Positions 410 through 34,997 of a stretch of DNA of 64,000 nucleotides are shown here, piece by piece (the first letter of the stretch is position 1; each line of letters starts with the position of its first letter). The notes under the pieces are model-generated. The model was given only the letters and a program-made list of their open reading frames with translations. It was not told where the DNA came from and did no database searches. This DNA is from Escherichia phage vB_EcoM_G2285: the sequence record MK327933.1; one strand, given 5' to 3'. The position numbers and the translations under genes are program-made.

Positions 410-988
410 TTAATTACCACGGGCTGCATTAGCAACGGCGTAAGCGTACTGAACATTAGCGTCCTTAAACGTACCTTTAGAGGTATCTATTTCTGCCTTA
501 AAGCCGCCTTTAGCCATAACATCTGCAAATTCTTTACGGAAAGCCATTGCATCAAGACCTTTCCATGTTGATTTATGCTTGGCAAATTCAAGACCGGCGT
601 AGTTGACAGCCTTAGCTAATTTATTATCAATAACCCATTTACCTGCTTTAGGCACAAACTTCGGGCCTTTTTGTTTAGAGAACAGTTTTAAATTCCAGCG
701 ACGAAGGTCACTGTCGGCTTTAACAAAAGCTGCATCTAAGTTACTAGCAACAACATCTTCAATATGAGCAAATTTAAGTCCGTCAACTTCAATATTTAGA
801 TCGTTACGCCAGCGAAGTCCTTCCCAAGCGAAGGCTTTAAAATCAGAAGCCTTTGTAGCTAAGTACCGTTCAATAGGAGCAGTTTTAGGGTCAAAGCCGT
901 TTCCGCCACGATAAGTCCACTCGTCCTTATTAATGCCTTGAGCTTTTCCTGCAAAGGCCTCGGCGATAAATTCTTTATATGTTTTCAT
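410..988 (-). CDS. ipIII: internal protein with N-terminal capsid targeting sequence (IPIII-like, 192 aa)
   Basis: ORF track; starts MKTYKEFIAEA (T4 CTS consensus cleaved by gp21 protease); size close to T4 IPIII; SD AAGGAAAC upstream of ATG 988. Confidence 0.65.
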   Translation of the reverse strand: MKTYKEFIAEAFAGKAQGINKDEWTYRGGNGFDPKTAPIERYLATKASDFKAFAWEGLRWRNDLNIEVDGLKFAHIEDVVASNLDAAFVKADSDLRRWNLKLFSKQKGPKFVPKAGKWVIDNKLAKAVNYAGLEFAKHKSTWKGLDAMAFRKEFADVMAKGGFKAEIDTSKGTFKDANVQYAYAVANAARGN

Positions 989-1019
989 TTTTTGTTTCCT
1001 TGTTTGTTTTGATAGAGTA

Positions 1020-1049
1020 ATTATACCATATTAATACTTAAGCGTAAAC
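1020..1049 (-). promoter_or_regulatory. T4 early-type promoter (GTTTAC -35, 18-nt spacer, TATAAT -10) upstream of ipIII-like gene
   Basis: Minus strand reads GTTTACgcttaagtattaatatggTATAAT; plus-strand gtaaac at 1044..1049 and attata at 1020..1025. Confidence 0.5.
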
Positions 1050-1052
1050 AAT

Positions 1053-1313
1053 TTAAGCTTTACCGCCAGAAATAATTCCGAAGTTGTTAAAATCGTATCC
1101 AATATCGTCAACATCTACTTTAGGACTTGCTACAACATAAGCAATTTCACTACGTTTTGCATAGGTGTTGATTTCTTTACCATCGCCACCTAAGAAAGAA
1201 TACCCATTACGCTTTAATGAGCCAAAGTCTTCCGCATCACCAATGAAAGCTTTAACTTTAAATTTGGGGTCTTTGACATCTGCTTCAATGATAAATTCTT
1301 GATACATTTTCAT
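1053..1313 (-). CDS. ipII: internal protein with capsid targeting sequence (IPII-like, 86 aa)
   Basis: ORF track; N-terminus MKMYQEFIIEA matches CTS pattern; ATG confirmed at 1313..1311. Confidence 0.55.
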   Translation of the reverse strand: MKMYQEFIIEADVKDPKFKVKAFIGDAEDFGSLKRNGYSFLGGDGKEINTYAKRSEIAYVVASPKVDVDDIGYDFNNFGIISGGKA

Positions 1314-1321
1314 TTTTTTCC

Positions 1322-1735
1322 TTAGTAAATTGATTTACCATAGTATTTGTACCAAGTCGGACGTTGAGCAATTTTTTCATCTAAGCGTGCTTGACTTATC
1401 GCAATGGACGCTTCGGACGGGACGTAATTATTACGAAATTCTACAGGAATGTCGGAAATATCCTGGACAGTCGTGTCCTTGATTTTGAAACCACGTTTCA
1501 AGCATTCAGCGATTAGCTCGATTTGACGTAAACGTAAAAATTCGAGTTTGTCGTAAAAGAATGTTACGTGACCTGTGCCTAAGATAAATGTTGGAGGGAT
1601 TTTAAAATCCTTTACACGTTTACCGTTTTGAACATGTTTACGGACTGAACCAAATACGCGTGGTAATTCACGATACTCAGCCATAAGATGTTGGTCGGTC
1701 AGTTCAGAAACAAGTGTTAAATTGATACGGGTCAT
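1322..1735 (-). CDS. denV: endonuclease V, pyrimidine dimer DNA glycosylase (DenV)
   Basis: Translation [35 protein letters not shown] nearly identical to T4 endonuclease V; ORF track start at 1747 is a TTG extension, ATG at 1735 with SD GGAGGAAA. Confidence 0.9.
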
Positions 1736-3746: not shown

Positions 3747-4052
3747 TTATTTTCCTCGACATTCTTTAATGAAATTTTCTAGATTGGTAGATTCAATAGC
3801 TTTTTTACGAGCTTCTGCGTGTTCTTCTTCGGTCAATTTACGTTTATAATTGACCCAGACATTATGGTCGAAACTAGTCGTGGCATATAATAACAAAGCT
3901 CCGACGAATAATAAAAACGGTGATAAGAATACAAAACCAGGAACACCATCCATATCGTAAGCCTTTTGTAATACTGCAACAGAAAGGGCTGCGTAAAAAA
4001 GTGATGCAAATATTGTTAAAAGACCAATTCGGTTGGTTTCGCCTAATTTCAT
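3747..4052 (-). CDS. small membrane protein (2 predicted TM) ending ...NLENFIKECRGK
   Basis: ORF track; SD GAGGAG before ATG 4052; hydrophobic segments; C-terminal motif family. Confidence 0.5.
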   Translation of the reverse strand: MKLGETNRIGLLTIFASLFYAALSVAVLQKAYDMDGVPGFVFLSPFLLFVGALLLYATTSFDHNVWVNYKRKLTEEEHAEARKKAIESTNLENFIKECRGK

Positions 4053-8247: not shown

Positions 8248-8535
8248 TTAACAACTTGTAGTGTCCTTCATACGTGGTTTATCCCAAGAAATACTAATAT
8301 ATGATTCACTGTCAATAGAAGTCGCCGGGTTTTTCTCTACCGTAAGACCTTCACTTTCCAGCCATTCAATAGTATTTGCGCATAAATCGGAAGAACACCT
8401 CATCGGGAACCGGCAAGATTTTTCACCTTTAGCTGCAGTGTTATACATCTTTTCTAAAATACGCTTTTGAACGTTTTTAAAAATAGTTTCAGCAGATTCT
8501 TCAGATTTTTTATTCAGTTCAGTGTAAAGACCCAT
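8248..8535 (-). CDS. hypothetical Cys-containing protein (95 aa)
   Basis: ORF track; ATG 8535 preceded by the conserved GAGGAGAATATT RBS block. Confidence 0.45.
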   Translation of the reverse strand: MGLYTELNKKSEESAETIFKNVQKRILEKMYNTAAKGEKSCRFPMRCSSDLCANTIEWLESEGLTVEKNPATSIDSESYISISWDKPRMKDTTSC

Positions 8536-8553
8536 AATATTCTCCTCATGTTT

Positions 8554-8592
8554 TGATAGGTCTATAGTAACACATCTAGGGAAGAAGTAAAC
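8554..8592 (-). promoter_or_regulatory. PeSL-like early promoter (GTTTAC -35, TACTAT -10)
   Basis: Minus strand GTTTACttcttccctagatgtgTTACTATAGAcctatc; gtaaac at 8587..8592. Confidence 0.5.
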
Positions 8593-8621
8593 ATCTTTAT
8601 GAAATATTTTTATGCCCTAGA

Positions 8622-8652
8622 TACCAAAAAACCCCAACCATAAGGAAGGGGC
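8622..8652 (-). terminator. candidate rho-independent terminator closing the RNA gene region
   Basis: Minus strand CCCCTTCC-TTAT-GGTTGGGG (imperfect stem) followed by TTTTTT. Confidence 0.4.
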
Positions 8653-9052
8653 TAAGCCTTGCGGCAACCTTGTCGGGGTTCCACCTGCTAAGGCAAGTGT
8701 TTGTACGAAACGCCGGGATTTGAACCCGGTTATTAAGTAGTTGACGCTACTCAATATTTTTAAAAGGCCATATCTCGACCGTATCCGAACGTTCCGTCAA
8801 AAACGCTACTCGGCTTACGGCAAAGATATTTCCTCGAATCGATAATTCTGTGCGCCGTTTCTGCTGTGATGTAAGGGGATATTAACGAATCATAAAGATT
8901 TATTAAGACCAGTCCTTACTCAGGGAACATCAGTCCGACGACTTACCGGTAGCGACCCGGCTTCTTATTTTGGCATATCATCAATTTGATCCTATAAAAT
9001 ATAGGAGTATTTATTATTTGGATAGAGCACTTAATTTACTTCGTTTAAATTA
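8653..9052 (-). ncRNA. unresolved structured-RNA region with a tRNA-like T-arm (CCGGGTTCAAATCCCGG); possible stable RNAs or non-canonical tRNA
   Basis: About 400 nt without convincing ORF between terminator and tRNA-Asn; T-arm-like motif at 8711..8730; no complete cloverleaf found by hand. Confidence 0.25.
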
Positions 9053-9124
9053 CTGGCGCACTTGGACTCGAACCAAGATAAAGGAGTTAACAGCTCCCCG
9101 TAATAACCTTTATACGATGCACCA
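9053..9124 (-). tRNA. tRNA-Asn (anticodon GTT)
   Basis: Hand-folded cloverleaf on minus strand: acceptor TGGTGCA/TGCGCCA, D-loop with GG, anticodon stem GGGAG/CTCCT, loop CTGTTAA, T-arm CTTGG-TTCGAGT-CCAAG; CCA not encoded; D-stem has one mismatch. Confidence 0.65.
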
Positions 9125-9130
9125 TTTGTT

Positions 9131-9205
9131 TGGTGACCCTGGCTGGTTTCGATCCAGCTACCTATCAGTTATGAGCTGACAGCTCTCCCATTGAGCTACA
9201 GGGCC
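9131..9205 (-). tRNA. tRNA with CAT anticodon (Met, or Ile if lysidine-modified)
   Basis: Hand-folded cloverleaf: acceptor GGCCCTG/CAGGGTC, D-arm GCTC-AATGGGA-GAGC, anticodon loop CTCATAA, T-arm GCTGG-ATCGAAA-CCAGC, encoded CCA. Confidence 0.75.
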
Positions 9206-9267
9206 TAAATAACTTTCTATTATGAAAGGCACTTTAGAGCACCTTTGGTAATAGAGGGTACTTATTA

Positions 9268-9294
9268 ATAATAACACATAATTCTTAAAGCAAA
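9268..9294 (-). promoter_or_regulatory. T4 middle-type promoter (MotA box TTTGCTTTA, 12-nt spacer, TATTAT -10) upstream of tRNA cluster
   Basis: Minus strand aatTTGCTTTAagaattatgtgtTATTATtaa. Confidence 0.45.
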
Positions 9295-9326
9295 TTAATC
9301 ATTTTTACTGTCAGTAAAACAATTTC

Positions 9327-9611
9327 TCACCATATTGTGTATGTGTTCTGAATGCAATCAAGTCCTAAAGGATTCTTGAAGATGTCGTATTCAACTGGGC
9401 CTGATTCAGTTTCAATAAAGAAATCAAAATTAACCGTGTTGAATTTACGGTCTTCCCAAATCAATTTAACTTGTGAAGATGAACGGTCGACATAAACCTT
9501 TTCAACTTCAAAATTAGTCAGAATACCGTAGTCATCGACTAGTGCTTTAGCTGCACGTTGATCGCTTTCATATCCATTCTCAATGGACGATACTTTAGCA
9601 TAAAGAATCAT
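9327..9611 (-). CDS. hypothetical protein (94 aa)
   Basis: ORF track. Confidence 0.45.
   Translation of the reverse strand: MILYAKVSSIENGYESDQRAAKALVDDYGILTNFEVEKVYVDRSSSQVKLIWEDRKFNTVNFDFFIETESGPVEYDIFKNPLGLDCIQNTYTIW

Positions 9612-32671: not shown

Positions 32672-34997
<2,326 letters not shown>

Follow-up and report, generated by a model that had tools for sequence, protein, structure and literature searches.

What does the DNA beside the tRNA genes of Escherichia phage vB_EcoM_G2285 (MK327933.1) encode? An earlier note on the 64,000-nt stretch analyzed here (the window) singled out about 400 nt at positions 8653..9052 as RNA-like, and proposed a stable small RNA of the kind found in the T4 tRNA cluster, a tRNA that is long or degenerate, or a tRNA remnant. 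The first of these proposals is literally correct, as the interval aligns base for base with the misc_RNAs rnaD and rnaC of the T4 reference genome and with the ncRNA rnaC of ATK47. Species 1 (RNA C) and species 2 (RNA D) are small stable RNAs first described in the 1970s from phage T4. We conclude with high confidence that this DNA forms the distal part of a tRNA operon of the T-even type on the minus strand, carrying the RNA D and RNA C orthologs, a trailer and a terminator. The two genes are thus already known and ordinary in a T4-like phage of this group, in any of which they are to be expected. Here we describe the layout of the locus, elaborate on the structure of RNA C, and weigh what the RNAs may do.

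Layout of the operon

The operon, whose RNA ends are transferred from the T4 annotation with a possible error of about 1 nt, consists of tRNA-Met, tRNA-Asn, an 84-nt spacer, rnaD, rnaC (directly downstream of rnaD, as in T4) and a conserved trailer with the terminator:

9268..9294, minus strand: candidate middle (MotA-dependent) promoter of the tRNA operon, read from the sequence with a presumed MotA match
9131..9205, minus strand: tRNA-Met (CAT anticodon), first gene of the unit (ARAGORN; Rfam tRNA, 59.4 bits at 9134..9205)
9053..9124, minus strand: tRNA-Asn (GTT) (ARAGORN; Rfam tRNA, 53.6 bits)
8969..9052, minus strand: AT-rich spacer (sequence read)
8849..8968, minus strand: rnaD homolog (species 2 stable RNA), 120 nt (alignment to annotated T4 rnaD)
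8843..8848, minus strand: GAAUUA, 6-nt spacer separating RNA D from RNA C (placed by the T4 annotation)
8704..8842, minus strand: rnaC homolog (species 1 stable RNA), 139 nt (alignment to T4 rnaC; own covariance model)
8620..8703, minus strand: conserved 3' trailer and intrinsic terminator of the operon (88% identity to T4)

The interval is therefore not one RNA of about 400 nt, as had been supposed, and resolves into rnaD, rnaC, spacer and trailer. Folding of the 443-nt stretch gives z = -5.6 relative to shuffles. The rnaC homolog is identical to T4 rnaC (NC_000866 70908..71046) at 136 of 139 positions (97.8%), and its predicted minimum free energy (MFE) is -52 kcal/mol (z = -5.0).

ARAGORN and Rfam at its gathering threshold return the same two canonical tRNAs that had been folded by hand (Asn-GTT and CAT), and neither ARAGORN at default settings nor the Rfam model RF00005 (E up to 10) calls anything in 8600..9052. 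A permissive Rfam search of 8400..9400 adds two matches at chance level (E ∼1, 16 bits vs gathering scores of 50-60). A covariance-model search, on which the earlier note had let the RNA reading depend, gives two answers: Rfam is empty at the site, while R1, a model built from homologs, scores the rnaC site at 158.6 bits (E = 5e-38) and recovers the homolog of Klebsiella phage F48, absent from its training set, at 85 bits. The empty Rfam search thus reflects the lack of a family for these RNAs, and not the absence of an RNA. The statement that the interval holds no credible ORF stands: inside it are just a 45-aa ORF with a TTG start and a 34-aa ORF, while a 69-aa ORF overlaps the tRNAs.

Structures of RNA C and RNA D

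RNA C is, in the comparative model, a tRNA-like four-way junction, supported by 30 distinct homologs from at least nine phage genera. Its elements are as follows:

8835..8841 / 8706..8712, minus strand: acceptor-like stem, 7 positions, with two U·U mismatches
About 8765..8834, minus strand: long arm replacing the D-arm
8795..8800, minus strand: loop A, UUGACG, capping the long arm; complement of loop B
8768..8769, minus strand: unpaired GG, immediately 5' of the CCU strand at the foot of the long arm; proposed equivalent of G18-G19 in tRNA
8731..8756, minus strand: 10-bp hairpin with a 6-nt loop (anticodon-arm-like)
8741..8746, minus strand: loop B, CGUCAA, the 6-nt loop of the anticodon-arm-like hairpin
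8713..8729, minus strand: T-arm, 5-bp stem CCGGG/CCCGG and loop UUCAAAU (sequence read)
8704..8705, minus strand: 3' overhang UA

Across the 30 homologs, 90.3% of the cells are paired vs 36-46% when partners are slid by 1-3 columns, and 33 of the 56 pairs show compensatory (both-side) changes; these counts were made on model-fitted alignments, which favors the model's own structure. The 5' strand of the acceptor-like stem is the 5' end of the RNA itself (CGAUUCG), and in T4 the annotated rnaC includes one further U ahead of the first acceptor pair. The third acceptor pair covaries (A-U in 11 homologs, G-C in 19), and the two U·U mismatches, which are in tandem, are invariant (30/30). The cloverleaf, which had been thought not to be foldable, does have a counterpart in this fold once the true 5' end, ∼130 nt upstream of the 3' strand, is used. 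When the long arm and linker are deleted, ARAGORN at relaxed settings calls a tRNA-like cloverleaf with the true 5' end and an abnormal loop. The 6-nt loop of the anticodon-like arm implies that RNA C cannot decode.

The minus-strand T-arm reported earlier, CCGGGTTCAAATCCCGG, is present, at 8713..8729 and not 8711..8730, and the acceptor-like CGTTTCG does follow it directly, at 8706..8712. It lies in the interval because RNA C mimics a tRNA: the 5-bp stem, capped by a loop of the form UUCRANY, leads straight into the 3' acceptor strand as in tRNA. Its third stem pair covaries (U-A 15, G-C 12, A-U 1, U·G 1). The DNA at the 3' end reads ...CGUUUCG-UA-CAA, with no encoded CCA, and the annotated T4 end is the UA. 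The T-loop core GGTTCRANTCC occurs three times in the 64-kb window vs 0.27 expected, in tRNA-Asn, in the RNA C T-arm and at 34077..34087; the last, which has no stem and falls within a 611-aa ORF, was set aside as chance.

Two candidate tertiary contacts emerge from the alignment. Loop A is invariantly UUGACG in 24 distinct homologs and UUGGCG in six of the Marfavirus type, and those six carry CGCCAA in loop B. The 6-bp duplex between the loops contributes -5.5 kcal/mol. As a nested helix it would come at a price of about +24 kcal/mol in the vB_EcoM_G2285 RNA, where the pairing is therefore possible only as a loop-loop contact. We rejected it as an alternative secondary structure, given its cost of +12.6 to +24 kcal/mol in T4-type RNAs; only in VPA32 and the Marfavirus type does the nested helix come out isoenergetic. 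The MFE fold of F48, taken as a single sequence, is uninformative. Loops A and B probably kiss, on the strength of a compensatory substitution that is confined to one clade and so amounts effectively to a single event, the other five pairs being invariant.

In tRNA, G18-G19 dock on the T-loop. In 27 distinct homologs the GG of RNA C occurs with the canonical T-loop UUCRARY, and three others combine CG with the T-loop UGCAUSC, which suggests that the GG probably docks on the T-loop as in the tRNA elbow; the link involves three variant sequences and an unusual parallel register. We found no earlier description of the kissing-loop or GG/T-loop contact in RNA C.

RNA D is 85.1% identical to T4 rnaD (120 vs 119 nt) and folds with z = -2.4. 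Its first 45 nt and last 25 nt are almost the same as in T4, and the 5' hairpin (CCGG-GUCGCUA-CCGG) and terminal stem (GUCGUCG pairing with the 3' end CGGCG(C)AC) are identical, whereas the long central arm, which differs among phages, is here of the Mosigvirus/ATK47 type, hence an overall identity of just 85%. RNAalifold on 11 homologs gives 25 pairs, six with compensatory changes, all in or adjoining the central arm. The 3' end reads GCGCACA here vs GCGCACC(A) in T4, so the CCA-like end of T4 rnaD is not conserved. RNA D was considered as a second tRNA mimic and rejected, since the 7-nt GUCGCUA loop is no T-loop and that CCA-like end is not conserved.

Expression and distribution of the RNAs

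The operon would be transcribed as a single unit from a middle-type promoter upstream of tRNA-Met to the terminator at ∼8626, as reported for T4, where transcription of the entire unit is driven from a middle promoter immediately 5' of the tRNA cluster and the ∼1.75-kb primary transcript ends after the species I gene (PMC2330249). The segment 9268..9294 consists of a MotA-box-like TTTGCTTTA (9286..9294), a 12-nt spacer and a -10-like TATTAT (9268..9273), and is probably a T4-type middle promoter of the tRNA operon, judging from its sequence and from what we take to be a match of the first element to the MotA-box consensus. The terminator is a stem-loop, CCCCUUCC-UUAU-GGUUGGGG, followed by U6 (8626..8651, minus strand). 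It was not picked up in a consensus terminator scan, probably because of two U·U mismatches in its stem. The trailer module is conserved whether it follows rnaC, comes directly behind rnaD (IME08) or adjoins an ORF (VR20, UPEC01). The spacer contains a 7-bp/3-nt hairpin (8990..9006) and, at 8965..8988 and running into the RNA D 5' end, a 24-nt remnant with exactly the sequence in which the RB69ORF150c-like gene of ATK47, located at this place, ends. The tRNA-Asn gene and the initial ∼70 nt of the spacer find their match in Mosigvirus-type phages with ∼1.1 kb more DNA here.

The transcript would then be cut into its parts by the host tRNA-maturation machinery. RNA C may be recognized like a tRNA, as the pairing of its two ends gives an acceptor-like stem of 7 positions that stacks on a genuine T-arm. 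RNase P substrates of the relevant class have a coaxial acceptor and T-stem of ∼12 bp and a single-stranded 5' leader, and the predicted fold offers seven acceptor and five T-stem positions (including the two U·U) with no linker, behind a single-stranded 5' leader (AAUUAU here, AAAUAAU-like in other genera). Since an acceptor-like stem on a T-arm is the minimal RNase P substrate, RNase P would make the 5' end of RNA C. The GAAUUA at 8843..8848 would in effect be the 5' leader that it removes, and the same cut would, on structural grounds, also free the 3' side of RNA D. Processing of the T4 species 1/2 precursor by RNase P is reportedly described in the older T4 literature. RNA C and RNA D would accumulate as stable, non-coding and non-decoding RNAs; the T4 orthologs are reported as small, stable RNAs without a known role (PMC3014915) and classed as late RNAs, with a northern assay using an RNAC probe, and T4 RNA C is an abundant stable RNA (PMC9697503). 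By analogy with the northern of the T4 ortholog, RNA C of vB_EcoM_G2285 would be a stable species of ∼140 nt.

About 800 phage records carry the region. In Melville, VPA32, LC53, EcS1 and Moon, the rnaC homolog lies between two tRNA genes and starts 5 to 9 nt past the end of the upstream tRNA, and by this arrangement RNA C appears to behave as a tRNA-like unit in those arrays. In IME08, rnaD and the trailer are present and rnaC is exactly absent; in VR20 and UPEC01, an ORF occupies the place of rnaC; in AV114, rnaD and most of rnaC are lost, leaving a tRNA-Asn/rnaC chimera with its joint inside the T-loop. These losses and replacements among relatives suggest that both genes are accessory in character. 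Every phage line evolved on a semi-permissive host acquired a convergent SNP in rnaD (PMC12685909).

Further loci were sought by scans of IMG/VR and metagenomes. A loose pattern (TTCGAGGA...GCGTCAAC) gave 120 loci in IMG/VR, and a covariance-model search of the first 80 (L020-L099, with L100-L139 left out) kept only L020. A metagenome scan with the conserved ends gave 58 loci, three of them real (L163, L204 and L208); L161 was rejected as a GC-rich chance match (26 bits). An IMG/VR scan with the loops unconstrained found no new clade, and its candidate L215 is an ordinary tRNA.

Possible functions and comparison with known systems

Our best guess, which is a tentative one, is that RNA C, as a tRNA mimic, occupies or titrates some tRNA-binding factor of the host or the phage, with a host-dependent accessory benefit. 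A more specific proposal, which we regard as rather doubtful, is that RNA C is a tRNA-derived mimic locked by the kissing-loop and GG/T-loop contacts, with the U·U mismatches as a partner recognition mark, and that RNA C, and perhaps RNA D, serve as host-range or anti-defense decoys. If this were true, the target would be a host factor that binds tRNA, for instance a tRNA-targeting nuclease or a processing or modification enzyme, and the accessory-like gain and loss, together with the convergent rnaD mutation in host adaptation, would be explained.

It is improbable that the RNAs are functionless by-products of a region that acts in cis, as structured spacer and trailer for tRNA processing, 3'-end protection and termination. 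No phenotype or target is reported in PMC3014915, PMC12685909 or PMC9697503, there are viable close relatives without rnaC or without both RNAs, and the trailer/terminator module is conserved alone, whatever precedes it. However, RNA C sits in mid-array as a separate unit in other genera, and not at the operon end; features irrelevant to excision (the tandem U·U, both 6-nt loops and the GG/T-loop combination) are invariant or covary across at least nine genera; and the rnaD SNP arose convergently during adaptation to a new host (PMC12685909).

The long or degenerate tRNA proposed earlier, with CGGAACG as the 5' acceptor strand paired to CGUUUCG (8706..8712), is very unlikely. Seven pairs, one of them G·U, are possible in this sequence, and relaxed ARAGORN (-ps80) reports an aberrant 'tRNA-???' with a 4-nt anticodon across exactly this region, which is called neither by ARAGORN at normal thresholds nor by the Rfam tRNA model (E up to 10). 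The heptamer lies at 8790..8796, so that the two starts are 84 nt apart and not 92. Its helix with CGUUUCG shows no compensatory change, with pairs broken in 17 (the third pair), 12 and 6 of the 30 distinct homologs. The long arm ends in an apical hairpin in which five of six pairs covary, and CGGAACG is instead the 3' strand of that hairpin; CGUUUCG covaries with the RNA C 5' end.

We likewise give little credence to a decaying tRNA pseudogene or recombination remnant under no selection. T-loop-mediated recombination does occur here (as in the AV114 chimera), and the spacer in the window holds an ORF remnant; the 97.8% identity to T4 runs across all 139 nt, however, conservation is strong over at least nine genera, in which 33 pairs keep their pairing through changes on both sides, and the T4 ortholog is an abundant stable RNA (PMC9697503). 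The chance that the locus is a small protein gene (the 45-aa TTG ORF, 8617..8754, minus strand) is negligible: many GenBank records do place 'hypothetical protein' CDSs over homologous DNA, and the ORF is also open in T4 because the DNA is nearly identical, but the frame, strand and extent of the annotated ORFs vary from record to record, Entb_45 has TAG in place of the TTG start and unrelated sequence downstream, the ORF crosses the T-arm and the terminator hairpin, and the substitutions compensate RNA helices.

In the T4 reference genome rnaC and rnaD are annotated. In most GenBank records they are left unannotated or covered by spurious 'hypothetical protein' CDSs, and they have no Rfam family, so automated pipelines keep rediscovering them as unexplained RNA-like DNA. 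The residual interest of the locus is modest and lies in the structure and in the function of these RNAs, a question that dates from the 1970s and for which the comparative model offers concrete and cheap mutations. These follow from the acceptor pairing with the true 5' end, the U·U that never varies, the compensated change in the two loops, the link of GG to the T-loop, and the loss and gain of whole modules. The locus also illustrates how T-loop homology drives recombination in phage tRNA clusters.

Among known systems, T4 rnaC is the closest, having the same place in the operon (after rnaD and before the trailer and terminator), the same length and the same predicted fold. The three substitutions include a G to A change in the T-loop (UUCGAAU in T4, UUCAAAU here), and the upstream context differs, with eight tRNAs, segB and tRNA-Arg in T4 vs tRNA-Met, tRNA-Asn and the spacer here.

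RNA C resembles canonical tRNA (RF00005) in its 7-position acceptor-like stem, formed by the ends and set directly on a 5-bp T-stem with a UUCAAAU loop, in its four-way junction, in its setting in tRNA arrays with tRNA-like spacing, and in a GG that changes along with the T-loop, as G18-G19 would. It is not a canonical cloverleaf and is undetected by tRNA models: an arm of ∼70 nt stands in for the D-arm, the anticodon-like arm is a 10-bp stem closed by a 6-nt loop, the acceptor stem contains two U·U, and no CCA or discriminator-CCA end is encoded.

With tmRNA, RNA C shares an architecture in which the paired ends of a longer RNA form an acceptor stem on a T-arm and the middle is replaced. Unlike tmRNA, RNA C has only 139 nt and lacks a tag reading frame, a pseudoknot series, the alanine-type G3·U70 and an encoded CCA. 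Both tmRNA and two-piece tmRNA were rejected, as the ARAGORN tmRNA search was negative at default and relaxed settings and there was no Rfam tmRNA match.

Rfam also gave no match in the interval to YrlA-type or other non-decoding tRNA-like families. YrlA is a bacterial and phage Y-RNA-like non-coding tRNA mimic, likewise non-decoding, in which the ends form the Ro-binding stem and the tRNA-like part is internal; in RNA C, by contrast, the ends themselves form the acceptor stem.

Layout and transcription of the operon

Megablast with 8540..9320 matched 851 phage records, nearly all from T4-like coliphages and their relatives, including ATK47, in which the homologous DNA is annotated as 'rnaC, small stable RNA; species 1 RNA'. 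In the T4 reference genome, two misc_RNAs directly follow tRNA-Arg, first rnaD (species 2 RNA), next rnaC (species 1 RNA), and ~280 nt of non-coding DNA lie between rnaC and gene e.8. Judged by alignment to the annotated T4 genes, the interval carries orthologs of both, one of the possibilities raised in the earlier note, which compared it with the small stable RNAs of the T4 tRNA cluster. The ORF check likewise found no credible ORF in the interval, whose predicted fold is far more stable than that of shuffled controls (z = -5.6). What had been taken for a single RNA-like stretch of ~400 nt is instead made up of five pieces (spacer, RNA D, gap, RNA C, and trailer with terminator). Their limits were mapped by alignment with T4 and ATK47.

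Features of the operon
9268..9294, minus: MotA-box-like TTTGCTTTA, 12 nt, TATTAT (putative promoter), upstream of tRNA-Met
9131..9205, minus: tRNA-Met(CAT), found by ARAGORN and Rfam
9053..9124, minus: tRNA-Asn(GTT), found by ARAGORN and Rfam
8969..9052, minus: spacer between tRNA-Asn and RNA D, 84 nt
8849..8968, minus: rnaD (RNA D), 120 nt, 85.1% identity to T4
between RNA D and RNA C, minus: gap, 6 nt
8704..8842, minus: rnaC (RNA C), 139 nt, 97.8% identity to T4
8620..8703, minus: 3' trailer with terminator, 84 nt, 88% identity to T4
8626..8651, minus: terminator CCCCUUCC-UUAU-GGUUGGGG-U6, end of the trailer

ARAGORN and Rfam agree with the note that these two tRNAs are the only ones in the whole window, and a permissive Rfam search of 8400..9400 added only two matches, both at chance level. 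A T4-like genome is expected to carry rnaC and rnaD at this locus.

We take TTTGCTTTA to match the MotA-box consensus. Together with TATTAT it forms a putative promoter, in keeping with T4, whose tRNA cluster is reported to have a middle promoter upstream of it and a primary transcript that runs through the cluster and ends after the species I gene (PMC2330249). A sigma-70-like promoter (TTTACT, 16 nt, TACTAT; 8564..8591, minus) is found just past the terminator, ahead of the next gene (ATG 8535). T4 has its TTTACA...TACTAT promoter at the corresponding position in front of e.8, and the window's promoter marks where the tRNA/RNA C transcription unit ends; it is absent from the consensus scan list because only 8/12 positions match. 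In the consensus scan for terminators, the real one (8626..8651) went undetected and a hairpin inside tRNA-Asn was flagged.

Predicted fold of RNA C

RNA C homologs were gathered from GenBank phages, IMG/VR and metagenomes, and a covariance model (R1) was built from 13 of them. R1 scores 158.6 bits at the window site and recovered, at 85 bits, a divergent homolog outside its training set, from Klebsiella phage F48 (Marfavirus). Loose pattern scans for further homologs returned mostly chance loci, and a loop-independent scan yielded no new clade. The final model-based alignment contains 37 homologs (30 distinct) from at least nine genera (Tequatro-, Mosig-, Karam-, Kanagawa-, Gelderland-, Winkler-, Moon-, Kagamiyama- and Marfavirus). 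On this alignment, whose fitting to the model biases pair counts toward the model's structure, 90.3% of cells are paired under the proposed structure compared with 36-46% when partners are slid by 1-3 columns, 33/56 pairs show changes on both sides with pairing kept, and the structure is well supported.

The model predicts that RNA C is a tRNA-like four-way junction. In the acceptor-like stem, the 5' end CGAUUCG (8835..8841) pairs with CGUUUCG (8706..8712), with four invariant pairs, a third pair that occurs as A-U (11 sequences) or G-C (19), and U·U at the two central positions in 30/30. A long arm of ~70 nt takes the place of the D-arm; its sequence is wholly replaced in the Melville/VPA32/PEi20 group, with pairing kept. 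The anticodon-like hairpin (8731..8756) has a 10-bp stem, in which 9/10 pairs covary, and a 6-nt loop, CGUCAA. The T-arm of RNA C is the one noticed earlier: CCGGGTTCAAATCCCGG is confirmed on the minus strand at 8713..8729, with CGTTTCG directly after it (8706..8712), and its third pair is U-A in 15 sequences, G-C in 12, A-U in 1 and U·G in 1. GGTTCRANTCC, the core of the T-loop, is present at three sites in the window (0.27 expected), of which one is in tRNA-Asn and one is this T-arm; the third (GGTTCAAATCC, 34077..34087, minus) lies inside a 611-aa ORF (33159..34994, plus), has no flanking stem and is attributed to chance.

CGGAACG, proposed in the note as the acceptor partner of CGTTTCG, is present (8790..8796), and it fails the covariation test for that role: the 30 homologs show no compensatory changes, and pairs of the helix are broken in 17, 12 and 6 of them. 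It is the 3' strand of the apical hairpin in the long arm. At relaxed thresholds ARAGORN called the version with this partner an aberrant 'tRNA-???' with a 4-nt anticodon, and after deletion of the long arm and linker it gave a cloverleaf using the true 5' end with an abnormal loop; these calls are illustrations, not evidence.

Two candidate tertiary contacts emerge from the alignment. The long-arm tip UUGACG (8795..8800) is the exact complement of the hairpin loop CGUCAA (8741..8746); neither varies in 24 distinct homologs, including those with an otherwise unrelated long arm, and six Marfavirus-type sequences have UUGGCG/CGCCAA, a compensatory A-U to G-C change. Since a nested helix would cost 12.6-24 kcal/mol in T4-type RNAs (24.4 in the window's RNA), the pairing would be possible there only as a kissing contact; the nested helix and the two-hairpin fold are equal in energy in VPA32 and the Marfavirus type. 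The second candidate involves the unpaired GG (8768..8769) just ahead of the CCU strand at the long-arm base: 27 sequences with the canonical T-loop UUCRARY have GG, and three with UGCAUSC have CG, a pattern that suggests GG as a counterpart of tRNA G18-G19. Because very few evolutionary events lie behind each, both links are suggestions rather than demonstrations.

The three sequences with the variant T-loop (UGCAUGC or UGCAUCC), always with CG for GG, are from the homologous loci L003 and L015 (Kanagawavirus-type) and L019 (Serratia phage LC53). LC53 and EcS1 (locus L144) have identical anticodon-like hairpins and differ in exactly the T-loop and GG/CG, a possible sign of recombination or of a second, independent change. 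A 9-mer, GAGUAGCGU, occurs twice in RNA C of T4-type phages (8801..8809 and 8744..8752, minus), in the 5' strand of the long arm's apical part and in the 5' strand and loop of the anticodon-like hairpin, and in VPA32 and Melville 13-17 nt of the two hairpins are mutually complementary; an origin by duplication or an alternative conformer may lie behind this.

RNA D, flanking modules, and gain and loss

RNA D is not tRNA-like. Its 5' hairpin (CCGG-GUCGCUA-CCGG) and the terminal stem formed with its 3' end are invariant, and its central arm exists in at least three unrelated versions with some compensatory change. The CCA-like 3' end of T4 rnaD is not kept in the window's RNA D. The 24 nt at 8965..8988 (minus), which precede and enter the RNA D 5' end, are identical to the 3' end (stop codon included) of an RB69ORF150c-like gene, which separates the tRNAs from rnaD in ATK47 and is missing in the window; relatives sharing tRNA-Asn and the spacer (e.g. 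phage F2) have ~1.1 kb of extra DNA at this site. The spacer also contains a perfect 7-bp inverted repeat with a 3-nt loop (UCCUAUA-UUU-UAUAGGA; 8990..9006, minus), which could be a processing signal or fortuitous.

The trailer (AACACUUGCC...GGUGGAACCCCGACAAGGUUGCCGCAAGGC...terminator) is conserved as a separate module: most phages have it behind rnaC, IME08 has it directly behind rnaD, and in VR20 and UPEC01 a protein gene precedes it. Two positions of the terminator stem that are G·U and A-U in T4 are U·U mismatches in the window. In ATK47 (locus L001; 3445..3475 and 3990..4050, locus coordinates), an additional ORF of 154 aa downstream of rnaC is flanked by two similar terminators. Only one terminator, of the second type (loop UUAU), is present in the window (8590..8651), where it is joined to the trailer; this looks like removal of the ORF by recombination between the two terminators.

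In other genera the rnaC homolog lies within tRNA arrays, starting 5 to 9 nt past the upstream tRNA (between tRNA-Trp and tRNA-Gly in Melville and VPA32, and between tRNA-Phe and tRNA-Trp in LC53 and EcS1), and is therefore handled as a further array unit. It is also dispensable, being absent in IME08, replaced in Gaprivervirus and mostly deleted in AV114. In IME08 (locus L005, 1494..1700) the absence is exact, with clean boundaries and rnaD joined straight to the conserved trailer; in Gaprivervirus VR20 (L146) and UPEC01 (L147) a 127-aa ORF stands in its place between rnaD and trailer (~492..1200). In AV114 (L006, OR352944.1, ~1451..1530) the annotated tRNA-Asn is a chimera, with the 5' two-thirds from tRNA-Asn and the rnaC 3' end from inside the T-loop on (…CTTGGTTCGAATCCCGGCGTTTCGTACAAACACTTGCC…). 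Apparently, recombination across the two T-loops removed rnaD, most of rnaC and the tail of tRNA-Asn, and in the tRNA that is left the acceptor and T stems are mismatched. By its distribution, rnaC behaves as a cassette. Most of the matching GenBank records leave rnaC and rnaD unannotated or under short 'hypothetical protein' CDSs of varying frame and strand (e.g. vBKpnF48_274; CDSs in NM4.3, Ursula and Kosakonia phage 305), which are probably spurious.

Possible function and comparison with known RNAs

The present analysis shows orthology to T4 rnaC and rnaD, a conserved covarying fold, operon position and modular distribution. T4 RNAs C and D are stable, with function given as unknown (PMC3014915); the T4 RNAs accumulate late and are validated by northern assay with an RNAC probe (PMC9697503), they belong to the primary transcript of the tRNAs (PMC2330249), and a convergent mutation in rnaD arose on a semi-permissive host (PMC12685909). 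The acceptor/T-arm minihelix would make RNA C an RNase P substrate, whose cleavage would generate the RNA C 5' end and release RNA D, with 3' ends then trimmed back to the terminal helices. The main rival explanation takes both RNAs to be mere stable by-products of cis-acting processing and termination signals. We tentatively favor tRNA mimicry, itself rather doubtful, because of the invariant U·U mark, the preserved elbow-like features, the accessory pattern of gains and losses and the convergent change in rnaD. In this view RNA C would occupy a factor recognizing the acceptor/T-arm/elbow face of tRNA, with a host-dependent accessory benefit. No Rfam family covers rnaC and rnaD; the comparative model of RNA C yields specific mutations for testing.

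The tRNA models of ARAGORN and Rfam did not detect RNA C in the window. Unlike a tRNA, RNA C has no D-arm, no 7-nt anticodon loop and no encoded CCA end; it is not a tRNA, yet by its predicted fold and proposed processing it would resemble one in both shape and maturation. ARAGORN (default and relaxed) gave no tmRNA match and there is no tag frame, and RNA C shares with the tRNA-like domain of tmRNA only the two ends that form an acceptor stem on a T-arm.
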